Notes: generated by a model not told the origin, from the sequence alone. 64,000 nt of DNA from Polyangiales bacterium (GCA_965227405.1 OZ245758.1:3124338-3188337); one strand, 5' to 3'. Positions 1 to 11,980 are shown, counted from the stretch's first letter. Numbers and translations: made by a program.

Positions 1-1337
1 GAGAGCCGCACATCACCGTCCTGCAGATCGACGATGAGCAGATCCGCGCGCATCTTGGAGTGCACCAGCTCGTTCCAGCGGTGAAAGTGCAACACGTCAA
101 AGCCCTCGGGCTGAAGCGCATCACGGACCAACTCGGCAATGTCGAGGTCGTGGTCGACCAACGCGACTTTCCACCGACGTGGGGATTCGGGCACGGCATC
201 CAAAATCGTGTCGCGCCCCGAGTCCTTCGCTGCGTAGAGCAACTCGTCGGCGGCATCGATCGCTTGGTCCAACGCCGCGTAAGGATCGAGCGCCGTGACA
301 CCCGCCGAGAAACTGATGCGTAGCTTCTTGGTGCTGATCGCCCGCGCTTTGAGTGCTTCGCGAAACTTCTCGAGCGCGATGCGAGCGCCGGCGGGGTTTG
401 TGTCGGGCAGGGTGATCGCAAACTCTTCACCACCCCAACGACCGAGCACGTCGGTTCCACGAAGCGTGTGCTGAAGCAGTTCGGCGAACTCGCGCAACAC
501 TTCGTCGCCCACCAAGTGGCCGTGCGTGTCGTTGACGCGCTTGAAGTGATCCAAGTCGATTAGGGCCAACGCGATGTTCATGCCGTTGCGGCGGGCCAAA
601 CTCGCAAGACGTTTGGTCTGTTCGAGATAGCCAGCACGGTTCGCGATTCCGGTCAGACCGTCAGTACGCGCTTGTCGCTCCATCTGCGCGTTGCGCCGGA
701 TGCTTGCGTCGACCGCAGCACGAAACAACGACGACTCGACCGGCTCTTCCAAGTAGCAATCGATGCCCAGTTCGAGCAGTCGCTCCAGTCGCTCTCGCGC
801 GGGGTGCTCGCTGACCACGATGACCGGCGTGTTTCGATGGCGGGGCGAGCGACGCATGCGTGCCAGCAGTGCGCTACACACCTGTCCGCCGATCATGTCA
901 CCAAGCACGATGACGTCGATGTCGTCGAGTTCGAGCAACTCGCGAAAGCGCTCCGAACTTCCGGTGTCGTGCACTTGCATCGCGCCGGTCATCGACTTCT
1001 TCCATGCCGCGCGCCGTTCGTCATCGCCTTGACCAAGCAAGACCTGCGGCGGCCGAGGCATGATCGAGGAGTGGCGAATCGCCGCTTCAATGGCGTCGAG
1101 AAGCCGGTCGACGTTGTCTTTGAGCGAGTCGTCGTCCGCAATCTCCACCGCGCGCGCGGCCTCGGTGATATCCGGGAACCCGTAACTCGCGGCAGCGCCA
1201 GCCAAGCGATGCGCTTCGAAGCGCAGCTCGCGACCGATCAAGGGATCCTGGCCAAGCCGCTGCCTGCCGCGGCGCAACGAATCGCGCTTGCGCGGAAGCG
1301 CCTGCACATACCGTCGCAGCAGCTTCTCGCTGACCAT
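1..1337 (-). CDS. Response-regulator/GGDEF diguanylate cyclase, 3' partial (C-terminus runs off the window start). Hpt-like region, then a receiver-like region, a GGDEF domain (GGEEF motif) and a second receiver-like region
   Basis: Minus-strand translation from ATG 1337..1335: MVSEKLLRRYVQ...TDGLTGIANRAGY...DHFKRVNDTHGH...LGRWGGEEFAITLPDT...AADELLYAAKDSGRDT. The 5' end (protein C-terminus) is not in the window. The + strand ORFs 60..323 and 672..1634 are antisense artefacts. Confidence 0.8.
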   Translation of the reverse strand, partial: MVSEKLLRRYVQALPRKRDSLRRGRQRLGQDPLIGRELRFEAHRLAGAAASYGFPDITEAARAVEIADDDSLKDNVDRLLDAIEAAIRHSSIMPRPPQVLLGQGDDERRAAWKKSMTGAMQVHDTGSSERFRELLELDDIDVIVLGDMIGGQVCSALLARMRRSPRHRNTPVIVVSEHPARERLERLLELGIDCYLEEPVESSLFRAAVDASIRRNAQMERQARTDGLTGIANRAGYLEQTKRLASLARRNGMNIALALIDLDHFKRVNDTHGHLVGDEVLREFAELLQHTLRGTDVLGRWGGEEFAITLPDTNPAGARIALEKFREALKARAISTKKLRISFSAGVTALDPYAALDQAIDAADELLYAAKDSGRDTILDAVPESPRRWKVALVDHDLDIAELVRDALQPEGFDVLHFHRWNELVHSKMRADLLIVDLQDGDVRL

Positions 1338-1380
1338 CCGCAGGAGCCTAGGGGGATCCTTGTCGGCCCGCTAGTCAGAG

Positions 1381-2646
1381 TTAGGGCGCGCGCCAGCTCT
1401 TCTCGGGTCGCTTGGGTTTTCGACCGATCTTCACCAACTGCTGTGGCTCGGCGACGGTATCGGGTGCATCCAAAGGCTCGAGCACGATTTCAAACGTGCC
1501 GTTATCAAACGGCCGACCATCGGCGGCTTCCCGTGCGACGAGTCGCTCCCGCAGACCTTCTTTTCGGCGCATGCGCGCACGGTGGTAGCAGTAGGGGTTG
1601 TTGCCGGGTCGTCCGAACACAGCGTGCGCGGTGAACGAACACCCACCCATGCACGTTTCGGCATACGCGCACTCGCGACAGTAGCCCCAAAGGTCATCCA
1701 CGGTTCGTTTGCGTGCGAACGCGAGTTCCGGCGAGCTGTCCCAGATGTCCTTCATGGAACGCTCTCGAAGTTTGCCGCCTACGTACGAGGTGCTTTGCAA
1801 CGAGGGGCAGCCCTTGACCCCACCATCCGACTCGATGCCCATGACGAACTTCCCAGCTTGGCAGCCCTGCCAGTGATCCTGTCCGTCGGGTTTGGGTGAC
1901 CGAATGATCGCTTCCTCGGGACCGAAGTACCCCAGGTTGTTTCCCGGCAAGATCCGAATGCCGTGTTTCCACGCGCGCTTCTTGAGTTCCGCAATGCGTG
2001 GAACCAAGTCCAACAGGTCCCAGGGTTGCAGCAGCATGTCGGGTCGATCGGCAGCGCGTCCTAGCGGCGATGTGATTTGGATCTGCCACGCCTTGATGCC
2101 CGCATCGCGCAGCTTCTCGAAGAGGTCTTCGATGTCGCCTCGGTTGACGCGGTTGATGTTGATGTTGGACGCAGTCGTGATCCCCGCGTCGCGAAAGTGA
2201 CCAAGCGCGGCGAACGCACCCTTCCAACTGCCCTTGCGTGCGCGAATCTTGTCGTGGCTCGGTTCAAGTCCGTCGATGCTCACGCTGACCAGTTGAAGTC
2301 CGGCCTTCTTCATGTCGCGTGCGAGTTCGGCGGTGATGCCAAGCCCACCGGTGGTCATGGTCGGGCGGATACCCGCGGCCGCGAGTGCGGCGATGATCTC
2401 AAGAAACCCGTCGTGCAGGTACGCTTCGCCGCCGATCAGTACAACCTCGCGTGCGCCCATTTCGTCGAGCTGAGCGACCACGTCCAACGCTTCGGACGTG
2501 GTCAGCTCATCAGCGCGGTGACCGCCGGCACGTGAACCGCAATGGCGGCACGCGTGGTCGCACGCGAGTGTCAGCTCCCACACCACGTATGCGGGATGCT
2601 GACCCTCGTGAACGACATCCAGTCGTCGGCCGCCGCGCTTCTTCAC
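1381..2646 (-). CDS. Radical SAM enzyme with C-terminal SPASM-type auxiliary Cys cluster (peptide/protein-modifying maturase class)
   Basis: GTG start (MKKRGG). CX3CX2C radical-SAM motif WELTLACDHACRHCGS. C-terminal Cys-rich region GYCRECAYAETCMGGCSF. Stop of the upstream small gene lies 5 nt before the start. Confidence 0.85.
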   Translation of the reverse strand: MKKRGGRRLDVVHEGQHPAYVVWELTLACDHACRHCGSRAGGHRADELTTSEALDVVAQLDEMGAREVVLIGGEAYLHDGFLEIIAALAAAGIRPTMTTGGLGITAELARDMKKAGLQLVSVSIDGLEPSHDKIRARKGSWKGAFAALGHFRDAGITTASNININRVNRGDIEDLFEKLRDAGIKAWQIQITSPLGRAADRPDMLLQPWDLLDLVPRIAELKKRAWKHGIRILPGNNLGYFGPEEAIIRSPKPDGQDHWQGCQAGKFVMGIESDGGVKGCPSLQSTSYVGGKLRERSMKDIWDSSPELAFARKRTVDDLWGYCRECAYAETCMGGCSFTAHAVFGRPGNNPYCYHRARMRRKEGLRERLVAREAADGRPFDNGTFEIVLEPLDAPDTVAEPQQLVKIGRKPKRPEKSWRAP

Positions 2647-2651
2647 GCTGT

Positions 2652-3008
2652 CTACGATCCGGCGTCGCCGGCGTATCCGTCAACCCCGTCGCAGTTCTGG
2701 TCTTCACCATCGCCGAGTTCATCGAACGCGAACGCATTCGTCGATGCAGACGACTCGTCGCAGTCCCACTCGCCGCAGTAACCGTCGCCGTCCAGATCGG
2801 ATGAGGGGTCATCGCAGTACATGCCACCATCGGGATCGATCGGATCGATCGGGACGCCGTAGCAAGCTGCGAGCGTGACCGCGGCCGCGCCCGTCGCAGC
2901 GACGTTCATCAACTTGCGCACGAAGCCCGTCTTCTTGGGCAGTGCATGGCCGCACTCCGGACAGATGTGACCAGGAACAAACGACTCGCAACACGGACAG
3001 CTCTTCAT
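2652..3008 (-). CDS. Small zinc-ribbon / single-TM / acidic Cys-containing protein (paralog A). Candidate substrate of the adjacent radical SAM enzyme
   Basis: MKSCPCCESFVPGHICPECGH (zinc ribbon), TM segment ...AATGAAAVTLAACYG, then an Asp-rich tail with DLDGDGYCGEWDCDES and NCDGVD. GGAGG Shine-Dalgarno 3 nt upstream of the ATG. Confidence 0.55.
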   Translation of the reverse strand: MKSCPCCESFVPGHICPECGHALPKKTGFVRKLMNVAATGAAAVTLAACYGVPIDPIDPDGGMYCDDPSSDLDGDGYCGEWDCDESSASTNAFAFDELGDGEDQNCDGVDGYAGDAGS

Positions 3009-3135
3009 GACTCCTCCAACTCAAACACCCAGACACGGAGGTACTTTGCAAAGCCTTTGCCACCGAAATTCCAGCGATCAAGGCCGATCAGGCACACGCT
3101 GGCACAAGGCACAGCGAGAGTGAGAACAGCGGTTG

Positions 3136-3396
3136 TCAGTGTACGTCCGGGTTGGATTCGTCGGTGTCGTACTGACCGCACCACCCATCCCCGTCTTGAT
3201 CGAGGCTGCTGTCTTCACAGACCGGCTGTTCAGCCATCTCGGGTTCTGGATATGCGGCGCCGTAGCACGCGGCCAGGGTGATCACGGAGATCGCACCGAG
3301 TGCTGCGTTTTTGAATCGACGACGCGGTCGGATCACGGCTCCGCATTCGGGACACCGGGTCGAAGGAACAAACGCACCGCACTTGCATCGATTCAT
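3136..3396 (-). CDS. Small zinc-ribbon / single-TM / acidic Cys-containing protein (paralog B)
   Basis: Internal start of ORF 3136..3774: MNRCKCGAFVPSTRCPECG, then TM ...GAISVITLAACYG, then DQDGDGWCGQYDTDES. Shares the LAACYG and DxDGDG[YW]CG[EQ][WY]DxDES blocks with paralog A. Confidence 0.5.
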   Translation of the reverse strand: MNRCKCGAFVPSTRCPECGAVIRPRRRFKNAALGAISVITLAACYGAAYPEPEMAEQPVCEDSSLDQDGDGWCGQYDTDESNPDVH

Positions 3397-3432
3397 AGCC
3401 GCAGGATACCCGATCGATCGTAGGCTGCGGCG

Positions 3433-4326
3433 ATGGCGAAGAAGAAGAACATGCTTCCCGTGGCGAGTCCCTATCTCGTTCCCTTCGATGGGAGCTGGAA
3501 GATCGGTAAATCCTCGCAGCAACCGCCCAAAGGCGCGCCTTCTGGAAAGAAGGGCAAGAAAGAGAACCGCAAGGTACTCGAGGGGATCGTGGACGAGATC
3601 TACGAGCTGCAGCGCATGTTCTACGCACACGATCGCTTCTCGATGCTGCTCGTGTTCCAAGCGATGGATGCGGCGGGTAAGGACGGCACGATTCGGGCTG
3701 TGATGACCGGCATCAACCCAGCGGGTTGTCAGGTGCAAACGTTCAAGCGTCCGAGTACCGAAGAGCTCGACCACGACTTTTTGTGGCGGGTCGCGCGCAA
3801 GCTACCAGAGCGAGGGCGAATCGGGATCTTCAACCGCAGTCACTACGAGGAAGTCCTCGTGGTGAAGGTGAACCCGAAGATTCTCGAGTACCAGAAGCTG
3901 CCGAAGATTCATGAAGACGTGTGGCAGCGTCGGTACGACGCGATTCGGAACTTCGAGAAGCACTTGGCCGACAACGGCACAGTGATCGTGAAGTTCTTTT
4001 TGAATGTGTCGAAGGAAGAGCAGAAGGATCGTTTGCTCGCGCGCATTGATGATGAGCGGAAGAACTGGAAGTTCGAGTCCGGAGACCTGGACGTACGCGA
4101 TCAGTGGGATTCGTACATGAAGGCGTATCAGAAGGCGTTGAACGCGACGTCTCGACCCTGGGCGCCGTGGTACGCGATTCCTGCTGACGACAAACCGTTC
4201 ATGCGAGCAACGGTGGCAGGAGTGGTACGGGATACCTTGGCCGCGTTGCCCTTGAAGTACCCGGAGTTGGACGCGAAGCAGAAAGCGCAACTTGCGGAGC
4301 ATCGCGCGCGGCTCGAAGCGAGTTGA
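3433..4326 (+). CDS. ppk2: Polyphosphate kinase 2 (PPK2) family nucleotide phosphotransferase
   Basis: PPK2 hallmarks: LLVFQAMDAAGKDGT (Walker A-like) and GIFNRSHYEEV. About 297 aa. Confidence 0.85.
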   Translation: MAKKKNMLPVASPYLVPFDGSWKIGKSSQQPPKGAPSGKKGKKENRKVLEGIVDEIYELQRMFYAHDRFSMLLVFQAMDAAGKDGTIRAVMTGINPAGCQVQTFKRPSTEELDHDFLWRVARKLPERGRIGIFNRSHYEEVLVVKVNPKILEYQKLPKIHEDVWQRRYDAIRNFEKHLADNGTVIVKFFLNVSKEEQKDRLLARIDDERKNWKFESGDLDVRDQWDSYMKAYQKALNATSRPWAPWYAIPADDKPFMRATVAGVVRDTLAALPLKYPELDAKQKAQLAEHRARLEAS

Positions 4327-4456
4327 ACGAGAAGCGCGACAAGGAAGAGTTTCGTAAGGACGTTCGCTTAGTGGCGATCAGCCTAGGTTGTGCCGCGTTG
4401 TTGTTGGCGATTGTGATGATCGGAATAGCGATCCTGGGAACGCGCGGTGGTTAGCC

Positions 4457-4771
4457 ATGGATGAACGTGCGCAACTTCTCGAAAAGCTACGTCAGCGTGG
4501 TTTGGAGATCAGAGACGGCTATCTCCCGGCGCAAAACGGCTTCATGGTGACCGACCCCAGCACGTTCGAGAGTGTCACGCTGGTCTCGGATGTCGGTTTC
4601 GTGCAGGTGTACGAGGTCGACGACGGGTGGGAGTGCAGAGTGACTCAGCACGGCGGTCCGCATTGGATACACGCCGCGAATTCACTTGCCGAGATCGAAG
4701 CGATCGTCGCGGAATTCTTCAGCGACCCTCAACGACCTCCGAAGGGCGACGGGTGGATCGTCGACGAATAG
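4457..4771 (+). CDS. Hypothetical small cytoplasmic protein
   Basis: Internal ATG of ORF 4388..4771 (MDERAQLLEKL...). No recognisable motifs. Confidence 0.35.
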   Translation: MDERAQLLEKLRQRGLEIRDGYLPAQNGFMVTDPSTFESVTLVSDVGFVQVYEVDDGWECRVTQHGGPHWIHAANSLAEIEAIVAEFFSDPQRPPKGDGWIVDE

Positions 4772-4789
4772 TTTCGCGGGTCGGTGATG

Positions 4790-4895
4790 GCCAACATTTT
4801 TGCCGGAAGTACGGGAAGGCTGGAAGGCGGGAAGGATGCCAAACCTTCCCGCCTTCCAGCCTTCTCGTACTTCCGGTAAAAAAATGGTCTCCCCG
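4790..4895. repeat. Palindromic MITE/REP-like intergenic element, copy 1 (33-bp stem with 32/33 complementarity, short loop, outer T-run/A-run)
   Basis: catttttgCCGGAAGTACGGGAAGGCTGGAAGGCGGGAAGGatgccaaaCCTTCCCGCCTTCCAGCCTTCTCGTACTTCCGGtaaaaaaatg. Lies between convergent genes. Confidence 0.65.
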
Positions 4896-4959
4896 CCAAC
4901 CACTTGACCGTCTTCGTCGCCTTGAAGTCTTCGAAAAACTAAATGGTCTACCCCGAGGA

Positions 4960-5835
4960 TCAGCGCTTCATCCGCGCCACGTGACGAATGATCGAACCCG
5001 CGACATCCAGTCGCGTCGTCCTTTCGATCCCTTCAAGACCCGGCGAACTGTTGATCTCCACCACCAAGGGACCGCGCTTGCTCTGAAGGATATCCACGCC
5101 CGCAACGCGCAGACCCACAGCCTCTGCCGCTCGAATCGCCACGTCCTTCTCTTCTGCGCTCAACTTCACAATGTCCGCCGTCCCGCCGCGATGCAGGTTG
5201 GATCGAAACTCACCCGCCTGCGCCTGACGTCGCATCGCCGCCACCACGCGCGTTCCCACCACGATGCACCGCAGGTCTGCGCCCGATGACTCTTCGATGA
5301 ACTCCTGCACCAACACGCCACTCGCCAAGTCGCGAAACGCTTCGATCGAAGACTCCGCAGCGTTCTGAGTCTCGCAAAGCACCACGCCGATGCCCTGCGT
5401 ACCCTTGATCACTTTTACAACCACCGGCGGTCCACCCACCGCGCGTACCAAGTCACCCGCATGAACCAGGGGACCTCGCCCGTACACCGTTGCAGGTACC
5501 GGCACACCCGCTTCTTCCAGAATCTGAAGACTCAGCATCTTGTCGCGTGATCGCAGGATTCCGTCCGAACTCACCGGCGTGAGCTTGCCCATCCGCTCGA
5601 GCTGACGAACCAGCGCAATTCCAAAGTGCGTCGCTGAAGCACCGATGCGTGGAATGAAGGCGTCGAGGTCGTCGTACGCGCGTCCTTGAAACGAAACCGG
5701 TGCAGGACCCGCGACACCCACGTGGCACTGCATGTAGTCAATGACGGAAACCTTGTGTCCTGCGCGACGACCGGCGTCGACGAGTCGGCGCGTCGAGTAG
5801 AGATCGATGCTCTGGCTGAGAACGGCGATCCGCAT
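4960..5835 (-). CDS. rimK: RimK-family ATP-grasp ligase (ribosomal protein S6 modification / alpha-L-glutamate ligase-like)
   Basis: Start MRIAVLSQSIDLYSTRRL. ATP-grasp blocks ...VVVKVIKGTQGIGVVLCE...VVEINSSPGLEG. The Ala/Ser/Gly-rich N-extension in the ORF track is the mirror of the opposite-strand repeat and is unlikely to be translated. Confidence 0.8.
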   Translation of the reverse strand: MRIAVLSQSIDLYSTRRLVDAGRRAGHKVSVIDYMQCHVGVAGPAPVSFQGRAYDDLDAFIPRIGASATHFGIALVRQLERMGKLTPVSSDGILRSRDKMLSLQILEEAGVPVPATVYGRGPLVHAGDLVRAVGGPPVVVKVIKGTQGIGVVLCETQNAAESSIEAFRDLASGVLVQEFIEESSGADLRCIVVGTRVVAAMRRQAQAGEFRSNLHRGGTADIVKLSAEEKDVAIRAAEAVGLRVAGVDILQSKRGPLVVEINSSPGLEGIERTTRLDVAGSIIRHVARMKR

Positions 5836-5854
5836 GCGAGCGAGCAGAGGTACC

Positions 5855-6742
5855 ATGCCTGCCATGCGGGTGGCATGCGTGATCGCGATGTTGTGGGGGG
5901 CTGGGTTGGTGCACGCACAAGCACCAGCCGAGAGCGAGGCCGAATCGGGTGCGAACCAGGTTGCGGCGCAGCCCGAAGAACCGGTGTCCGAACCCGAACC
6001 CGAACCCGAACCCGCACCCGAAGCCGAGGCCGAAGCTGAACCCGAAGCCGAAGCCGAGGCCGAAGCCGGAGTCGGACGCGAAGCTGCACCCGAAGCTGAT
6101 GCGGCGCCTTCGCCTCGCGAGACTGCGGCGCGGCAACCTGGTGAAGGCCCGCGCATGGAAGACCAAGTCCAAGCCGAGCCCGAAGAAGCAGAAGAAGAGG
6201 AAGACCGCTTTCGACTCTTCTACTTAGAGATCTCAGCGGGCTACGTGTGGTCGAACCTCGGTGTCATCAAGAACGAGAACTTCGTTCCCGACATTCAGAA
6301 GATCGAAGGAAGCGGCTACGGCTTTGGCGCGGGCGCAGGCTTCTTCATCTCGTTTCTCACGTTGGGCATCCAAGCCGAGTGGGCGCGGCACGGCGCGTTT
6401 GATCTCGGTACGGTGACCTTGGACTTGGGGATCCGTCTCCCAACACCTCATCTCGAACCCTACTTGCGAGCGGGCATTGGCTACGCGTGGTTGTCGAACT
6501 TGGACAACTTTCAAGAAGAGGGGGACGCCGCGATTCGAGGTGTGGCCGTCGATATTGGTTTGGGCTTTGACTACATGATCTCGCCGCTTGTGGCGGTTGG
6601 CATCGGTGGCGACGTATCGCTGTTCAACGTGCGTCGAAAAGGGGTGAGCGGCCGGCCGACCACGGACATCGTGCTGGAAGACGATGGCGATGCGATCGGG
6701 ATCCAGGTGAGCGCACTCTTGCAGCTCAACCTGCACTTTTAG
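5855..6742 (+). CDS. Secreted protein: signal peptide, Pro/Glu/Ala-rich low-complexity linker, and C-terminal beta-barrel-like outer-membrane domain
   Basis: MPAMRVACVIAMLWGAGLVHAQA signal, (EP)n/(EA)n tract, then FYLEISAGYVWSNLG...GFGAGAGFFISF alternating aromatic/Gly beta-strand pattern. Start could be 5855 or 5864. Confidence 0.55.
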   Translation: MPAMRVACVIAMLWGAGLVHAQAPAESEAESGANQVAAQPEEPVSEPEPEPEPAPEAEAEAEPEAEAEAEAGVGREAAPEADAAPSPRETAARQPGEGPRMEDQVQAEPEEAEEEEDRFRLFYLEISAGYVWSNLGVIKNENFVPDIQKIEGSGYGFGAGAGFFISFLTLGIQAEWARHGAFDLGTVTLDLGIRLPTPHLEPYLRAGIGYAWLSNLDNFQEEGDAAIRGVAVDIGLGFDYMISPLVAVGIGGDVSLFNVRRKGVSGRPTTDIVLEDDGDAIGIQVSALLQLNLHF

Positions 6743-7950
6743 CGAGGACTGCAGCGGAGCCATACATCTCCACACAGCACGCGCGACCCAACAACTTGGG
6801 AGCCGGTGGAGGTCACGCTTGTCCACGTCGCCATCACGGTGCCGTCATCCGCAACAGCAACCTGTACCTCGTCGCCATCTCCTGCGCCCAGATCGAGCGT
6901 GTGGACTCGGTCGCCAGTGCTGCCATGGATGAACGCCAGTCGTACAAGCGGCTCGGGACTTCCGGGCGGGCTGCCACGATACCCGACCACATACCCACCG
7001 AGGTACGTGCCGACACGAGCAACGCGTGCACCGAGTTCACCAACCGCATTGATGCGCAGTTCCGCTCCACGAGGCACACCCGTCGAGTCGAGACGAATCG
7101 CGTAGAGTTGCTCCTCACCCGTCGCTCCACTCTCGAATACGACGAGTCCTCCGTCCTCATGGAATGAGAGATCCACCGAACCAGTTGCGGGGTGGTTTGT
7201 TTCGACCCGGGTGGTCCCCTCCATGAGTCCTTCGCCATCAACTCGACCGATCTGCAAAGCGTCGCCCGACCGCCATGCGAGGATCGCGTACCCGGAGCGG
7301 CCGACAATCGCAGGCGCTTCGAGTTCCACGTTGTTGGCGATCACCACGCTCGCAGACGGAGCGTCCCCCCAGAAGCGTCCGTGCAACTGAGTTGTCGTCG
7401 CGCTGAGTTCGATCCATGTGACAAACCAGTTGTCCTCAACTCGGTCGACAGCGGGCAGGATTTGCGTACCGGACGAGTCGGCGATTCGCTGCTGGGCTCC
7501 GGAGGGCTCCATGCCATCCACGCGTCGTCCCACGACCTGAAAGCGTCCGTCCACTTCCTCGGTCCAAACCACGAGCCCATCACTCACGGCGGAAGAGTCG
7601 ACTACCGAACCCACGGACGAGAGCTGTGCGCTCGTCATCTCTTCACCTTCGCGCTCGACTTGTGCGGCGAAGACACCATCCTCGCGCGACCAGCTCACCA
7701 CAAAGCGCGATCCTCCGTGAACGTCGGTACGTCCGATCCCGACAGCTTCTTCAGGAGCGAGTTCAAAGTAGTCCGGTACACACGTGCCAAGCGGACCGGA
7801 GTCCGGGTTTGCAACTGTCGGACCCGAGTCAGGCACAGGCCGATCAGGCCTCATAAAGTTGGCGTCGAAGAGCGTGGTGGGCGGTGGGGGTGCAGACTCG
7901 CCGCATGCGCAGAGAATCGCGCAGACAACGGCACTATTCTTCCGGAACAC
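6739..7950 (-). CDS. Secreted lipoprotein, hypothetical (beta-rich)
   Basis: MFRKNSAVVCAILCACGES lipobox. Overlaps the upstream giant gene by 17 bp. Confidence 0.55.
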   Translation of the reverse strand: MFRKNSAVVCAILCACGESAPPPPTTLFDANFMRPDRPVPDSGPTVANPDSGPLGTCVPDYFELAPEEAVGIGRTDVHGGSRFVVSWSREDGVFAAQVEREGEEMTSAQLSSVGSVVDSSAVSDGLVVWTEEVDGRFQVVGRRVDGMEPSGAQQRIADSSGTQILPAVDRVEDNWFVTWIELSATTTQLHGRFWGDAPSASVVIANNVELEAPAIVGRSGYAILAWRSGDALQIGRVDGEGLMEGTTRVETNHPATGSVDLSFHEDGGLVVFESGATGEEQLYAIRLDSTGVPRGAELRINAVGELGARVARVGTYLGGYVVGYRGSPPGSPEPLVRLAFIHGSTGDRVHTLDLGAGDGDEVQVAVADDGTVMATWTSVTSTGSQVVGSRVLCGDVWLRCSPR

Positions 7951-10900
7951 AGAGAGCCTCCTGTCGGATGGTGCGGATCACTGGATAGGTCGCGGGGTCG
8001 GCGGTCGCCGCGGTCAACGTGACGCTCACTTCCATGAACAATCCGTGCGGCATGCCACCGGCTGTCAGGAGTGAACCGACGTCGACACCGCAGTAACTCG
8101 GTGCCACACCGTCACGTGGTGGGCAGATCACGGAGCCGCGAGAAACCTGTTCGGTGATCGTGACGGCTTCAAAGTCCAGGCGGCTCAGGGCGTCGAGCGT
8201 TTCGGCGCTACGCACACCCACTTCAAGTGAGCTGCCATCTGGAATCGAGGACTCCCACATGAACCAAGTCCAGGTTGGCCGTTCGGGCGGAACCATGCAG
8301 AGTTCTTCCGCAGCGTAAACAGCGGTGAACGTGCCGCTTGGCGGTTCGGGTTCAACACACACGCCGCCGTCTAGGTACATGTGAGGCGGGCAGATGCACG
8401 CGCCCAGCTCGCAGACAGCCCCTCCATCGCAAGTGACCCCGTCGCATGGATCGCTCGCAGCGGGACACGGAAAGTTGGCCTGCACCATGGCGCTTCCGTC
8501 GGCGAGGAAGTTGTCGCACCAGCTCCCTCGAAGTTCGATTCGGTTTTCACCAATGGCGACCCATCCATCGTCCGGGCTGCATGGAACCATCATTGAGTTG
8601 AGACTCAGGCTGCCCCCACCGCATGCGCCACGGCTTAGGTCGATCAGTCCGGAGAGGTCGAGCGCGCAACTGAGTTGCGAGGTGATGAGATCGGTCAACT
8701 CAGTCCGCAGCTCTGCGGCGGAGGTGACGGTGAAGTACGTTGCACCGCTATCCACACCTGCGCCCGCGTTGGCGACGGCTTGGAGGTGGTCGACAGCAAT
8801 GTCCTCGTCGATCGACACGACAAACGTCGGGAAGCCCGCATCGAACGCTTCCGATACGCGGTCGACCACCGCGTCTCGGCCGTAGTTGTCGGTTCCGCGA
8901 CACCCGTTGGGCTCTCCATCGGTCGCGAGGATGAGTGCAGTTGAGCCGGTCGGAAGCAGACCGCTTACACGCTGATCGACGAGCCAGTCGGTGGCTTGTT
9001 CGATCGCATCTGCGGTGGGCGTGCCTCCTCCGGGGCTCTGCGAGGAGATGAACGTGTTGAGTGTGTCACGAGCGTCGAGCTGGAGCGTACTGGTGCCCTC
9101 CAGCACGTCGCTGCATGAGCTTCCGCGGTACGTGCGCATGGCAAAGCGGACCTGGTCTTGCAGATTGGTGATCACGCCATCGCTGGCGTCAAACAACGCT
9201 TCCTTCATGCCCTCCCAGCGCGAACCGCCACCGGACCATCCCCAGTTCATGCTTCCCGATTGGTCCATGATGATCAGGAAGTTGGGGGGAACCGGTTCGG
9301 CCTCGAAATCAAGCGATGCGCATGTGCGCCCCGTGGTGGAACAACAGCCGAGTAAACAGATTTCTCCACTCGAGCAATCTGCGTCGCCACCACACGACGC
9401 TCCAGTCGAGCACTCGGGTCCACCGCAGTCTGCAGGCAGATCGTCGACTGTCTTGCCCAAGCAGAGCTCGCAGCGACCGCATTCGTTGATGCACTCGCTG
9501 CTCTGCGTGCACGTGGTGCAGAACCGCGGGTCATCGATCACGTCCAGCGAGCAGCTGTCCGCGATCATCACATGCGTCGTGGTGCCGTCGTCGAGTTCGA
9601 CCGCACAGCAACCGAAGCAGTCGCAACCGTTCGGAGCCAACGGCGCGCAGAACGCGAGACATCGGTCTGCAACTTGGCATGAAGAGTCCGAAGCGGGACG
9701 CTCACCCGTAATGCACTCGGTGTGGTAGCGGCAGCCGTCGTCGCCAGCACCGGAGTTGCCGTCGAAGAAGCAGTCTTGCCAGAATGGGTCGCGATTGTCG
9801 CCCGGGATGCCCGTTCCAAAGGAGCCTTCGTCGTTGTCATTCGGCCCGGTGCACTCCGGATCTGCACCGTCGATGAGTCCGTCTCCTTCGTCGTCGCGAC
9901 CGTTGCTGCATGCACATCCGTCCGCGGGACAGTGGTCTGGGACCACGTCGGAAAGACCGTCCCCGGAGCCACCGCTGCCGTCGATGCTGAACGCTCCGCT
10001 GAGCGAACAACCACTCGCGGGAATGACGATTCGTACCGGAACCGCCGAGACGACTGCGCTTGAGCCCCCGGTGTCTTTTCGCGAGAGGTGCAGCTCGAAA
10101 TCGAAGACCCGTGGTGTGTCCGTCGCGGGAATGGTCGCATTGAGGAACGACACATCAAACAGCACCTCGGTATCGCGAGCACAGTTGGTGACGCTGGTTG
10201 CGGACTGCCCGGCGCAGTGTCCGTCAACAGAGACCACGTCGATGCCAGCAACCTCGCTCGGTGTAAACGGAAGCCCTGAGCCGACGAACTCAGCGCTTAG
10301 TTCTCGGTAGGTCGAACGCCCACTGGGAAACACGTAGCGAAGTTGGGTGCTGCTGGGAAGAGCAGGTGGTGTGTACGCCGTCAGTGACTCGGCCCCACTT
10401 GCGCAACCGACGAACTCGGTGGCACCGGCAGCATCAGGACAGTCGTCCGCTACATCGACGATTCCGTCCGCGTCGCGATCCGCCATGGTTTCGCAGGCAT
10501 CCCCTGTGGGAGGCGGACCTGCGGGTGTACCTGTGAAGCCACCCATTCCGTCCACTCCGTAGGCGCCGTGTGCGTCACACCCGATCGGTGGAACCACCAC
10601 GACGACATCGTACGTGCTTCGACTGGTACGCGTTCGTGGCGGGCGCGTCGTGCTGATGTCTTGGACGATTGAAACTTCGAAGCGGTACACCTGCGGTGTT
10701 GCCGACGCTGCGATCGTTCCGTCAAACCGGAGTCGGAATGCAACTCGGGCATCCATATCGCAGGAGGAGAACGTTTCGGCTCCTGTGGTTCGACAGAAAC
10801 CAGACGTAGGTCCCTCGGCGACCCACTCGGTGACAAAGCCAGGATCGCCATCGACTTCGAACGAGACTTCCGTGGTCGCTTCGGGCAGCTGGAGCGCAAC

Positions 10901-11980
10901 AAGAGCTTCGGCGTTCGCGCCTTCGGGTAGGATCGCACTGACCCGCTCGGCACCACTGAGACAGCCACCGAACTGTGGCGAACCGACCTCAAGCGGACAC
11001 ATGTCCATGGCGTCGGGCATGCTGTCGCCGTCGCCGTCGACCAAGTCACCGCAGGGGCCGTCGGTTCCAGGCGGAAAAATCACACCGCGACCGTCCATTC
11101 CAACAGCTCCTGCCGTGTCGCAGTCTGCGGCGGGAACGATCACGCGAACTAAGCCCTGTGCATTGGTGCTGCCGCCGTCGTTCAATCCGACTTGATGATC
11201 AAAAAGTTGTGCGTCCGCGGTTTGAGCGATCACGCCTTGGTTGCGGAGGGTGATCACAAAACGCACTCGGGTCCCTGGGTCGCAGTCGCGGAAATCGGTG
11301 GACGTTTGTGACCGACAACTTCCGCTCATCACCGAAAATGTACGAACCCGGACCAGTAGGTCGGGGTGTGGTCCCATCAGTTCAAGTTCAACGTCGGAAC
11401 CTCGTGCGCCGACAACGAGATCGGCGGCGACGCTGTACTCGCGAGGCCGGTCTGGAAGAATTGCGACCACGGCTGCATCGCCACTGGTGCACCCTAAGTA
11501 CTGAGCGCGGCCTGCCTCGTCGGGGCACTCGTCGCCAATGTCGGGCACCCGGTCCGCGTCTTCGTCGGGCGAGCAGCTTCGTGGAACGTCGGGAGGCTCC
11601 AAGGTGATGCCGCCACCCGGTGCAGTCGTGGTTCCTTCCCCGTCGCTTCCCTCAGGCTCACCGGTGACCTGTCGACAACCTGGGTTGCAGTCGTAGCAAG
11701 CCTGTTCACTTTCGATCAGCTCTTGGCTCACGCCCATCACGTCCTCGAGGACGTACGTCGTGGCATCGAGACACTCCGTCCACGCTCCCCCTTGACAGAA
11801 GCGCATGCCGGAACGGCAGGTGAGTCCGTGTTCGCTTTGCTCCACCTTCTCGTGGCACTCGATCGCCGTGCCTTCGACACAGCGGCAACCTTCTGCAGGT
11901 GTGGGACATTCGGGCGCGTCGACGAACGAGGTGTCCCAGCACGCCGTCGTAAACACCAGGGCTAGGAAGAACGAGCGCAT
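7934..11980 (-). CDS. Giant (1348 aa) secreted protein with TSP3/MopE-like Asp-Cys calcium-binding repeats and a C-terminal von Willebrand factor A domain
   Basis: N-terminal hydrophobic MRSFFLALVFTTAC. Repeats DADRVPDIGDECPD, DGDGDSMPDAMDMCP, DRDADGIVDVADDCPD. vWA with MIDAS LIIMDQSGSM...ATDGEPN. Confidence 0.8.
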   Translation of the reverse strand: MRSFFLALVFTTACWDTSFVDAPECPTPAEGCRCVEGTAIECHEKVEQSEHGLTCRSGMRFCQGGAWTECLDATTYVLEDVMGVSQELIESEQACYDCNPGCRQVTGEPEGSDGEGTTTAPGGGITLEPPDVPRSCSPDEDADRVPDIGDECPDEAGRAQYLGCTSGDAAVVAILPDRPREYSVAADLVVGARGSDVELELMGPHPDLLVRVRTFSVMSGSCRSQTSTDFRDCDPGTRVRFVITLRNQGVIAQTADAQLFDHQVGLNDGGSTNAQGLVRVIVPAADCDTAGAVGMDGRGVIFPPGTDGPCGDLVDGDGDSMPDAMDMCPLEVGSPQFGGCLSGAERVSAILPEGANAEALVALQLPEATTEVSFEVDGDPGFVTEWVAEGPTSGFCRTTGAETFSSCDMDARVAFRLRFDGTIAASATPQVYRFEVSIVQDISTTRPPRTRTSRSTYDVVVVVPPIGCDAHGAYGVDGMGGFTGTPAGPPPTGDACETMADRDADGIVDVADDCPDAAGATEFVGCASGAESLTAYTPPALPSSTQLRYVFPSGRSTYRELSAEFVGSGLPFTPSEVAGIDVVSVDGHCAGQSATSVTNCARDTEVLFDVSFLNATIPATDTPRVFDFELHLSRKDTGGSSAVVSAVPVRIVIPASGCSLSGAFSIDGSGGSGDGLSDVVPDHCPADGCACSNGRDDEGDGLIDGADPECTGPNDNDEGSFGTGIPGDNRDPFWQDCFFDGNSGAGDDGCRYHTECITGERPASDSSCQVADRCLAFCAPLAPNGCDCFGCCAVELDDGTTTHVMIADSCSLDVIDDPRFCTTCTQSSECINECGRCELCLGKTVDDLPADCGGPECSTGASCGGDADCSSGEICLLGCCSTTGRTCASLDFEAEPVPPNFLIIMDQSGSMNWGWSGGGSRWEGMKEALFDASDGVITNLQDQVRFAMRTYRGSSCSDVLEGTSTLQLDARDTLNTFISSQSPGGGTPTADAIEQATDWLVDQRVSGLLPTGSTALILATDGEPNGCRGTDNYGRDAVVDRVSEAFDAGFPTFVVSIDEDIAVDHLQAVANAGAGVDSGATYFTVTSAAELRTELTDLITSQLSCALDLSGLIDLSRGACGGGSLSLNSMMVPCSPDDGWVAIGENRIELRGSWCDNFLADGSAMVQANFPCPAASDPCDGVTCDGGAVCELGACICPPHMYLDGGVCVEPEPPSGTFTAVYAAEELCMVPPERPTWTWFMWESSIPDGSSLEVGVRSAETLDALSRLDFEAVTITEQVSRGSVICPPRDGVAPSYCGVDVGSLLTAGGMPHGLFMEVSVTLTAATADPATYPVIRTIRQEALCVPEE

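Follow-up and report, generated by a model that had tools for sequence, protein, structure and literature searches.

A conserved radical SAM/SPASM enzyme paired with putative zinc-ribbon, lipoprotein-like partner proteins: a candidate modification module in Polyangiales and other bacteria

In a 64,000-nucleotide stretch of a Polyangiales bacterium genome (GCA_965227405.1 OZ245758.1:3124338-3188337), hereafter the window, the gene of a radical S-adenosylmethionine (SAM) enzyme with a SPASM domain lies directly downstream of the genes of two small paralogous proteins, here called partners A and B, and we found that this pairing of enzyme and partner is conserved in other bacteria. Each partner has a putative N-terminal zinc ribbon, a hydrophobic segment that resembles the h-region of a signal peptide, the heptad Thr-Leu-x-Ala-Cys-Tyr-Gly (T-L-x-A-C-Y-G) and a tail that varies between lineages. 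The genes may form a self-contained two- or three-gene module, in which A and B would be dedicated substrates of the adjacent enzyme, and each partner would be a prolipoprotein-like protein with an unusually long signal peptide, whose tail after the Tyr-Gly pair is variable, mostly disordered or of the MopE type, and exported. We propose tentatively, with a confidence that falls a little short of even, that the zinc ribbon is leader-like, that the A-C-Y-G site is modified before export, and that lipidation and removal of the signal peptide then follow. We know of no other protein that combines a zinc ribbon and a signal peptide of the lipoprotein type with an invariant Cys-Tyr-Gly. A literature search found no paper describing this enzyme-partner system, and in public annotation the enzyme is a "radical SAM protein" and the partner is "hypothetical" or a "putative metal-binding motif-containing protein"; for the window's own proteins, an exact look-up gave neither a name nor an accession. 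An earlier note on this DNA had suggested a candidate undescribed modification system at the locus; the module does prove to be conserved, dedicated and apparently undescribed, while the target and the chemistry suggested at that time are not supported.

The association of enzyme and partner was observed from both sides. A radical SAM/SPASM gene adjoins nine of nine inspected partner homologues (P0011, P0006, P0012, P0020, P0019, P0186, P0146, P0204, and P0339), the flanks of these loci being otherwise unrelated; beside P0339 the enzyme is truncated and 56% identical to that of the window. In the enzyme-side survey, a genome scan with the enzyme protein and a metagenome scan, a partner was found directly upstream of the enzyme gene in L009-L016, L018, L020, L022, L028-L030, and L034, and divergent from it in L017, L032, L045, and L047. 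In L019 and L031 the contig ends within the partner gene, of which the C-terminal part is visible, and the contigs of L021 and L033 have no upstream sequence. Nearly every enzyme locus with enough flank carries a partner, in Myxococcota as well as in metagenome-assembled genomes (MAGs) of Sericytochromatia/Cyanobacteria. Two partner paralogues per enzyme are present in the window, L005, L006, L012, L013, L034, and L045, and the gene order B-A-enzyme is kept in L006/L007. The module is also present in the complete 13.1 Mb genome of Sorangium sp. So ce375 (L047, CP150335.1). Partners rich in Lys, Asn and Glu, from low-GC organisms, carry the same TLMACYG (L046, with a GC content of 43%, and P0321, P0336, P0337, P0339, and P0346), and the module therefore reaches beyond Myxococcota and Sericytochromatia. 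More distant enzyme loci (L025, L026, and L036-L041, 34-40% identity) were assigned to other systems; in L036, a large ATP-binding transporter-like open reading frame (ORF) lies directly downstream on the opposite strand.

An all-versus-all comparison of the flanks of 21 loci gave the same picture, with the enzyme recurring in 21/21 and the partner in 19/21, so that the neighbourhood conservation to which the earlier note had tied its proposal was borne out. No further gene occurred in more than four of the 21 loci, and no protease or transporter recurred among them, which fits export through the general Sec and lipoprotein machinery. The comparison also bears on a second idea of the earlier note, in which A and B would signal across the membrane in the manner of anti-sigma proteins, with the enzyme maturing or regulating them. 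The topology does resemble that of such proteins, in that a zinc-binding domain in the cytoplasm would be followed by a single membrane segment and a domain outside. In the 21 loci, however, only enzyme and partner recur, so that sigma factors and regulators are not among the conserved neighbours; no zf-HC2 match is listed in Pfam or NCBIfam, and many tails are of low complexity and lack a sensor domain. We regard this explanation as highly improbable.

The part of the partners that does not change is the N-terminal module. Among four partner alignments, A48, C49, Y50, and G51 (numbering of A) are invariant and T45 and L46 are invariant or nearly so; P12 is also invariant or nearly so, and P17 is invariant in two of the alignments (A2, A3) and nearly so in the other two (A1, A5). 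In a word search, T-L-x-A-C-Y-G or a close variant was present in 128/129 matches, Cys-Tyr-Gly being the constant part. Because a word-indexed search could favour the heptad motif, an exhaustive profile search of 1.84 billion representatives was added, which returned 955 representatives (50% identity level) at E <= 0.001 and 339 at E <= 1e-10; among its short new matches, 119/122 had a close variant of the heptad. Two exceptions, TLAACSG and TLWACGD, still have the Cys. This invariant core of zinc ribbon, h-region and T-L-x-A-C-Y-G had been overlooked in the earlier note, and so had the likeness of LAACYG to a lipobox, that is, to a site of cleavage or lipidation.

The putative zinc ribbon itself follows the spacing CxxC-x8-12-CPxC, with an aromatic-hydrophobic-Pro stretch after the first knuckle. 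Pfam zinc-ribbon matches of the partners stay below cut-off, and AlphaFold2 (AF2) predicts short strands here with a predicted local distance difference test (pLDDT) value of ~85. In the model of A, the zinc ribbon takes up residues 1-25, a helix spans residues 29-49 with C49 as its last residue, and a MopE module spans residues 65-110 (pLDDT > 90); when the PDB was searched with the partner model by Foldseek, nothing significant was found (best E-value 4). One could argue that the zinc-ribbon Cys themselves are the target, for example of sactionine-type Cys-to-carbon crosslinks within a Cys-rich core in the cytoplasm, with the hydrophobic segment and the tail serving for placement only. The four Cys are invariant along with the near-invariant P12 and P17, the zinc ribbon is the sole region of the partner that permanently shares a compartment with the enzyme, and the solved structure closest to the enzyme is SkfB; sactipeptide synthases, SkfB among them, are of the SPASM or twitch type. 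However, the spacing is that of a textbook zinc ribbon, in agreement with the AF2 model and the weak Pfam matches, and the invariant T-L-x-A-C-Y-G would be left unexplained, which makes a target within the zinc ribbon improbable in our judgement.

Several features of the segment that follows the zinc ribbon are those of lipoprotein signals. In 96/129 members, the Cys follows the last Lys or Arg at a distance of 16-17 residues, and relative to this Cys, Lys and Arg prevail at -18 and -17 and Gly at -10. The four residues before the Cys are T-L-[M/A/S]-A, with T-L-[MAS]-A-C in 121/129 members, or 128/129 when T-L-T-A-C and T-M-x-A-C are counted too. A basic n-region, an uncharged h-region within the ~7-22 residues usual for lipoproteins and a lipobox of the form [LVI][ASTVIM][GAS]C are all found, and Leu at -3 speaks against signal peptidase I. 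Thus, the partner N-terminus reads as a lipoprotein (signal peptidase II) signal peptide with a putative cytoplasmic zinc-ribbon extension. The hydrophobic stretch had previously been taken for a single transmembrane helix; the stretch is there, but since it is only ~16-17 residues long and ends in the lipobox-like L-A-A-C, it is probably a signal-peptide h-region and not a stable membrane anchor. What is non-standard is that a zinc ribbon of 25-45 residues precedes the basic patch and that Thr at -4 and Tyr-Gly at +2/+3 are almost invariant, neither of which is demanded by any lipobox rule. In a sister clade (L024), whose enzyme is 51% identical, a variant partner lies downstream of the enzyme gene (5131-5502, +); it has a zinc ribbon, an h-region and the canonical lipobox LALGGC, followed by DEE and not YG. 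This one example suggests that the lipobox Cys may be older than the CYG motif. A resemblance of X-Tyr-Gly to the chromophore tripeptide of GFP was taken as a coincidence without supporting evidence.

The tail is where the lineages differ. From its sequence, the acidic tail appears to be one MopE-type repeat that is specific to some lineages, in line with the likeness to TSP3/MopE motifs already noticed in the acidic block that A and B share (DLDGDGYCGEWDCDES and DQDGDGWCGQYDTDES, respectively). The PF11617 score of A is 18.2 bits against a cut-off of 27 and thus below it, homologues pass the cut-off (the Sorangium partner, for example, with 38.4 bits), and many of the matches carry PF11617 in precomputed listings; one such repeat forms the tail in most Myxococcota members, and B holds just half a repeat. 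In composition (D 18%, G 12%, P 12%, A 11%), the tail resembles a lipoprotein tether. The partners of L020, L022 and many Sericytochromatia/Cyanobacteria MAG members have Pro/Ser/Thr-rich tails with one 2-Cys loop, and those of L016 and L017 are longer and Cys-rich.

The earlier note had pointed to this tail, besides the zinc ribbon, as a possible target. In the form assessed here, the enzyme would make thioethers at Cys-X3-Asp in the acidic tail of A and B, in the style of PapB/ranthipeptide enzymes or of QhpD, and the N-terminus would be only an anchor or leader. QhpD crosslinks Cys to Asp or Glu in QhpC, which is a small exported protein; the window enzyme is likewise a SPASM enzyme that would have two auxiliary clusters, and C-x3-D is present in 180/249 tails, as against 112 +/- 6 in shuffled tails. 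Nevertheless, the motif is absent from 69/249 tails, and its excess is due to the consensus of the PF11617 repeat, which is widespread in myxobacterial secreted proteins that have no radical SAM partner. Moreover, 29/249 partners have a low-complexity tail without any Cys and 36/249 have the 2-Cys loop only, without the acidic motif, although the enzyme remains 56-67% identical across the lineages with replaced tails; the enzyme beside the Cys-free P0204 (L045) is 67% identical to the window enzyme and keeps all cluster Cys. The number of tail Cys is even (4, 2, 6 or 0) in 127/129 members, which fits disulfides in an exported module, and AF2 confidently predicts the tail of A to fold as an independent module. 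We therefore consider thioether formation in the tail very improbable. Elsewhere in the window, at 7934-11980 (-) and 6739-7950 (-), two genes side by side encode putative lipoproteins whose signal peptides are short and ordinary (MRSFFLALVFTTAC... and ...AILCAC...). One of these proteins (1348 aa) is rich in Cys and has a VWA domain as well as TSP3-like Asp/Cys repeats; acidic Cys/Asp repeats are thus common in the exported proteins of this genome without a radical SAM partner.

The enzyme is a full member of the radical SAM/SPASM class, with three plus seven Cys. It passes the Pfam cut-offs of both PF04055 (Radical_SAM, 92.1 bits against 29.5) and PF13186 (SPASM, 31.1 bits against 21.5). Beyond the CX3CX2C motif there are exactly seven Cys, spaced C262-x17-C280, C323-x2-C326-x5-C332-x3-C336, and C353, which would be enough for two auxiliary Fe-S clusters. 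The two top NCBIfam matches are TIGR04103 (484.4 bits, cut-off 725) and TIGR03913 (394.9 bits, cut-off 591.75), with alignments covering residues 19-401, nearly the full length including the post-SPASM extension; as both scores are under the cut-offs, the enzyme belongs to neither family, and the Sericytochromatia and L024 enzymes are likewise under these cut-offs. AF2 gives an alternating beta/alpha core (pLDDT 85). The closest solved structures by sequence are SkfB and PqqE, and the solved folds closest to the model are SkfB, PqqE, SuiB, and anSME, with SkfB closest, all of which modify peptides or proteins. Since the CX3CX2C motif begins at residue 29, there is no room for an N-terminal RiPP recognition element (RRE; RiPP, ribosomally synthesized and post-translationally modified peptide), and no PqqD-like Pfam match to the window proteins is listed. 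We infer that the C-terminal hairpin (residues 365-391, with predicted strands at 365-371 and 385-391) is a candidate docking element for the partner. The best 120 database matches of the enzyme, which include Sorangium, Byssovorax, Kofleriaceae, and Polyangiaceae, all have at least 64% identity, and identity to a Sericytochromatia enzyme is 60%; conservation of this strength fits a target site that does not vary, not a tail that does.

The main alternative to the substrate model is that A and B are membrane-anchoring or regulatory subunits, in which the zinc ribbon tethers the enzyme and the substrate lies elsewhere, for instance a lipid, a cofactor or an exported protein. A zinc ribbon followed by a membrane segment and a variable outside tail is a common layout of bacterial membrane proteins, the enzyme is unusually conserved for a RiPP maturase and has no RRE, and the divergent gene pairs in four loci (L017, L032, L045, and L047) and an enzyme without a nearby partner in L023 would also agree with it. 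On the other hand, no recurring third gene is available in the 21 loci to supply the substrate, an anchoring role would not explain why Cys-Tyr-Gly is strictly invariant where the hydrophobic stretch ends on the outer side, and the 16-17-residue h-region with its lipobox looks cleavable. In addition, the closest families and folds modify peptides or proteins, and two or three paralogous partners per enzyme are typical of precursors. We consider an anchoring or regulatory role unlikely, though with an appreciable residual probability.

If A and B are substrates, we propose that the module works as follows. Partner and enzyme would be made together, their genes often being translationally coupled. 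The cytoplasmic enzyme would then dock onto the zinc ribbon, which would take the role of a RiPP leader, and 5'-deoxyadenosyl radical chemistry with two auxiliary clusters would alter a residue in or next to A-C-Y-G while the partner is still in the cytoplasm. The candidate chemistry is a crosslink (-2 Da) involving the Cys, the Tyr or the Thr at -4, or an oxidation of the Cys or the Tyr. Subsequently, the partner would be exported by Sec, Cys49 (Cys44 in B) would be lipidated, and the zinc-ribbon signal peptide would be cut off. A more specific version of this model is a new form of lipoprotein maturation, in which the zinc ribbon, carried in the n-region of the signal peptide, serves as a RiPP-style leader and recruits the enzyme for a covalent change at the +1 Cys, the +2 Tyr or the -4 Thr ahead of export; we think this version unlikely.

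Several points weigh against the substrate model. The enzyme has no recognisable RRE, and recognition of the zinc ribbon as a leader is a conjecture. A target within the signal peptide and lipobox needs to be modified before or during Sec targeting, which is a narrow time window, and a crosslink through the Cys thiol would leave Lgt unable to lipidate the Cys. Met at -2 is uncommon in lipoboxes. According to the PROSITE rule PS51257, the lipoprotein Cys lies within roughly the first 35 residues, while here it is residue 49 in A, residue 44 in B and, as a median of the family, residue ~55, because the zinc ribbon adds length. The invariance of T-L-x-A-C-Y-G could also reflect recognition by a factor other than the enzyme. 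Finally, the L023 enzyme (58% identity) has no partner nearby and is the sole clear exception to the co-occurrence. This enzyme (3995-5545, +) has a C-terminal extension of ~100 aa, and the large ORF directly upstream of it was judged by eye to be VgrG-like.

The features of the locus are listed in Table 1. Three co-directional minus-strand genes, as the earlier note had described them, agree with the ORFs and the sequence, and its further claims of a GTG-started enzyme gene 5 nt past A without a ribosome-binding site, and of paralogy between A and B with a common zinc ribbon, heptad and acidic block, were also confirmed. The stop codon of A is at 2652-2654 and the GTG at 2646, a spacing consistent with translational coupling; in other loci, the partner stop overlaps the enzyme start by 4 nt (L001, L005, L006, and L046), abuts it (L044) or lies at most 86 nt from it. 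The enzyme start is sound, because the ORF has no start codon upstream of this GTG, which itself stands ahead of the family-conserved R7-R8-L9. B begins at an internal ATG within a longer ORF (3136-3774), and this start is supported by four B-type homologues of similar length (P0020, P0192, P0239, and P0244, 85-87 aa). A pairwise comparison of A and B gave 41% identity (E = 7e-19), both contain TLAACYG, and they are true paralogues. A promoter/terminator scan over 1200-3800 found nothing.

Table 1 Features of the enzyme-partner locus (window coordinates)
Feature	Position	Strand	Basis
Radical SAM/SPASM enzyme gene, 421 aa, GTG start	1381..2646	-	ORF, Pfam, NCBIfam, AF2
Predicted beta-hairpin extension C-terminal of SPASM, residues 365-391, conserved RERLV...PFDxGxF	1474..1554	-	AF2, conservation
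SPASM region, seven Cys (C262, C280, C323, C326, C332, C336, C353)	1588..1863	-	All invariant, alignment A4
CX3CX2C radical SAM cluster motif (C29, C33, C36)	2539..2562	-	Invariant in 46 homologues
Spacer, 5 nt, from the stop of A to the enzyme GTG, without a Shine-Dalgarno-like run	2647..2651	-	
Partner A, 118 aa: zinc ribbon, signal-peptide-like segment, ACYG, one MopE-type repeat	2652..3008	-	
A: acidic tail, single MopE-type "putative metal-binding" repeat, 4 Cys, putative lineage-specific cargo	2679..2816	-	
A: heptad T45-L46-A47-A48-C49-Y50-G51, lipobox-like, proposed processing/modification site	2856..2876	-	
A: putative C4 zinc ribbon (C4, C7, C16-P17, C19)	2952..2999	-	Cys invariant in alignments A1, A2, A3, A5
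GGAGGAG ribosome-binding site of A, just 5' of its ATG	3011..3017	-	Sequence
Partner B, 86 aa, paralogue of A with truncated tail (2 Cys)	3136..3396	-	
B: heptad T40-L41-A42-A43-C44-Y45-G46	3259..3279	-	
B: putative zinc ribbon, CxC first knuckle (C4, C6, C15, C18)	3343..3387	-	Pfam zinc-ribbon matches weak, below cut-off

Around the module, an HPt-receiver (REC)-GGDEF diguanylate cyclase gene (3-1337, -) lies ~45 nt downstream of the enzyme gene and runs off the window start; it is probably unrelated to the module, because it is absent beside the module in other lineages. On the other side, a PPK2 polyphosphate kinase gene (3433-4326, +) is divergent, its start being 36 nt from that of B, and has as its neighbour a RimK-type ATP-grasp ligase ORF (4960-6156, -); in the close relatives L006/L007, this PPK2-RimK pair is likewise found beside the module. 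The RimK ORF overlaps an outer membrane protein beta-barrel ORF (5807-6742, +) by 350 nt at 5807-6156, in a GC-rich repeat that is translated as SASASGSG... from one strand and as EPEPEAEAEA... from the other. As the RimK domain match begins only at residue 108, the RimK start is probably further downstream and the overlap an artefact of ORF calling. In two distant loci, L047 (15-1892, -) and L005 (2129-3988, -), the neighbourhood of the module encodes a large protein whose Pfam matches, weak or faint, are to cytochrome c and MauG/CCP types; it does not recur in the other compared loci, L047 being outside the all-versus-all set.

Radical SAM/SPASM maturases have been a repeated source of new peptide chemistry, and the clade described here is large and strongly conserved, as indicated by the 955 partner representatives and by at least 64% enzyme identity across Myxococcota orders. 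If the partner is the substrate, RiPP-like leader-guided radical chemistry would be joined to the general lipoprotein export pathway, and a very short, testable target motif would be defined. If the lipoprotein-maturation version is true, the mature surface lipoprotein would begin with a structure made by a radical SAM enzyme, and its signal peptide would double as the leader. For experiments, Sorangium sp. So ce375 offers a starting point, being a named strain whose genome is complete.

Among known systems, the best-scoring families are TIGR04103 (nif11-class peptide radical SAM maturase 3) and TIGR03913 (GDL motif peptide-associated radical SAM/SPASM maturase), both annotated as maturing small peptides encoded nearby; a literature search found no paper on either. 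The window partners differ from their peptides in carrying a zinc ribbon and a signal-peptide-like segment; neither A nor B has an NCBIfam match at E <= 0.1, and hence no Nif11 leader match, and Pfam gives weak MopE or zinc-ribbon matches only. Ranthipeptide and sactipeptide systems (PapB, CteB, SkfB) resemble the module in having a SPASM/twitch radical SAM enzyme beside a small Cys-containing precursor. However, the window enzyme lacks an RRE-sized N-terminal domain, the Cys-X3-Asp spacing is not conserved in the partner family, the partners are 85-170 aa long with a zinc ribbon and a signal peptide, and no transporter or peptidase recurs. TIGR04133 ("rSAM_w_lipo"), which we take from its TIGRFAMs description to be a SPASM protein paired with a small lipoprotein, resembles the module in that pairing of enzyme and small putative lipoprotein, but the window enzyme matches it weakly, with 132.4 bits, far under the cut-off of 425, and to our knowledge the TIGR04133 system has no zinc ribbon or CYG motif.

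For a target that is exported later, the closest precedents in concept are QhpD/QhpC and anSME/sulfatase, in both of which a cytoplasmic SPASM enzyme modifies a protein before its export; anSME is also among the nearest folds. Identity with anSME was rejected, because the partner has no C/S-x-P/A-x-R motif, no sulfatase is among the recurring neighbours, and neither the QhpD nor the anSME family is among the best 25 NCBIfam matches of the enzyme. The conserved site here also differs from both in being T-L-x-A-C-Y-G at a lipobox, with no dedicated exporter or protease recurring. With MopE-type repeat proteins (PF11617), most Myxococcota partners share the one repeat that serves as their tail. 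Bacterial prolipoproteins, the substrates of Lgt and LspA, share with the partners the basic n-region, the 16-17-aa h-region and L-[AMS]-A-C, whereas in the partners the n-region is lengthened by the 25-45-residue zinc ribbon and the Cys lies at 44-54. The module would work like a RiPP or protein-maturase pair, and its enzyme falls under the definition of none of QhpD, anSME and TIGR04133.

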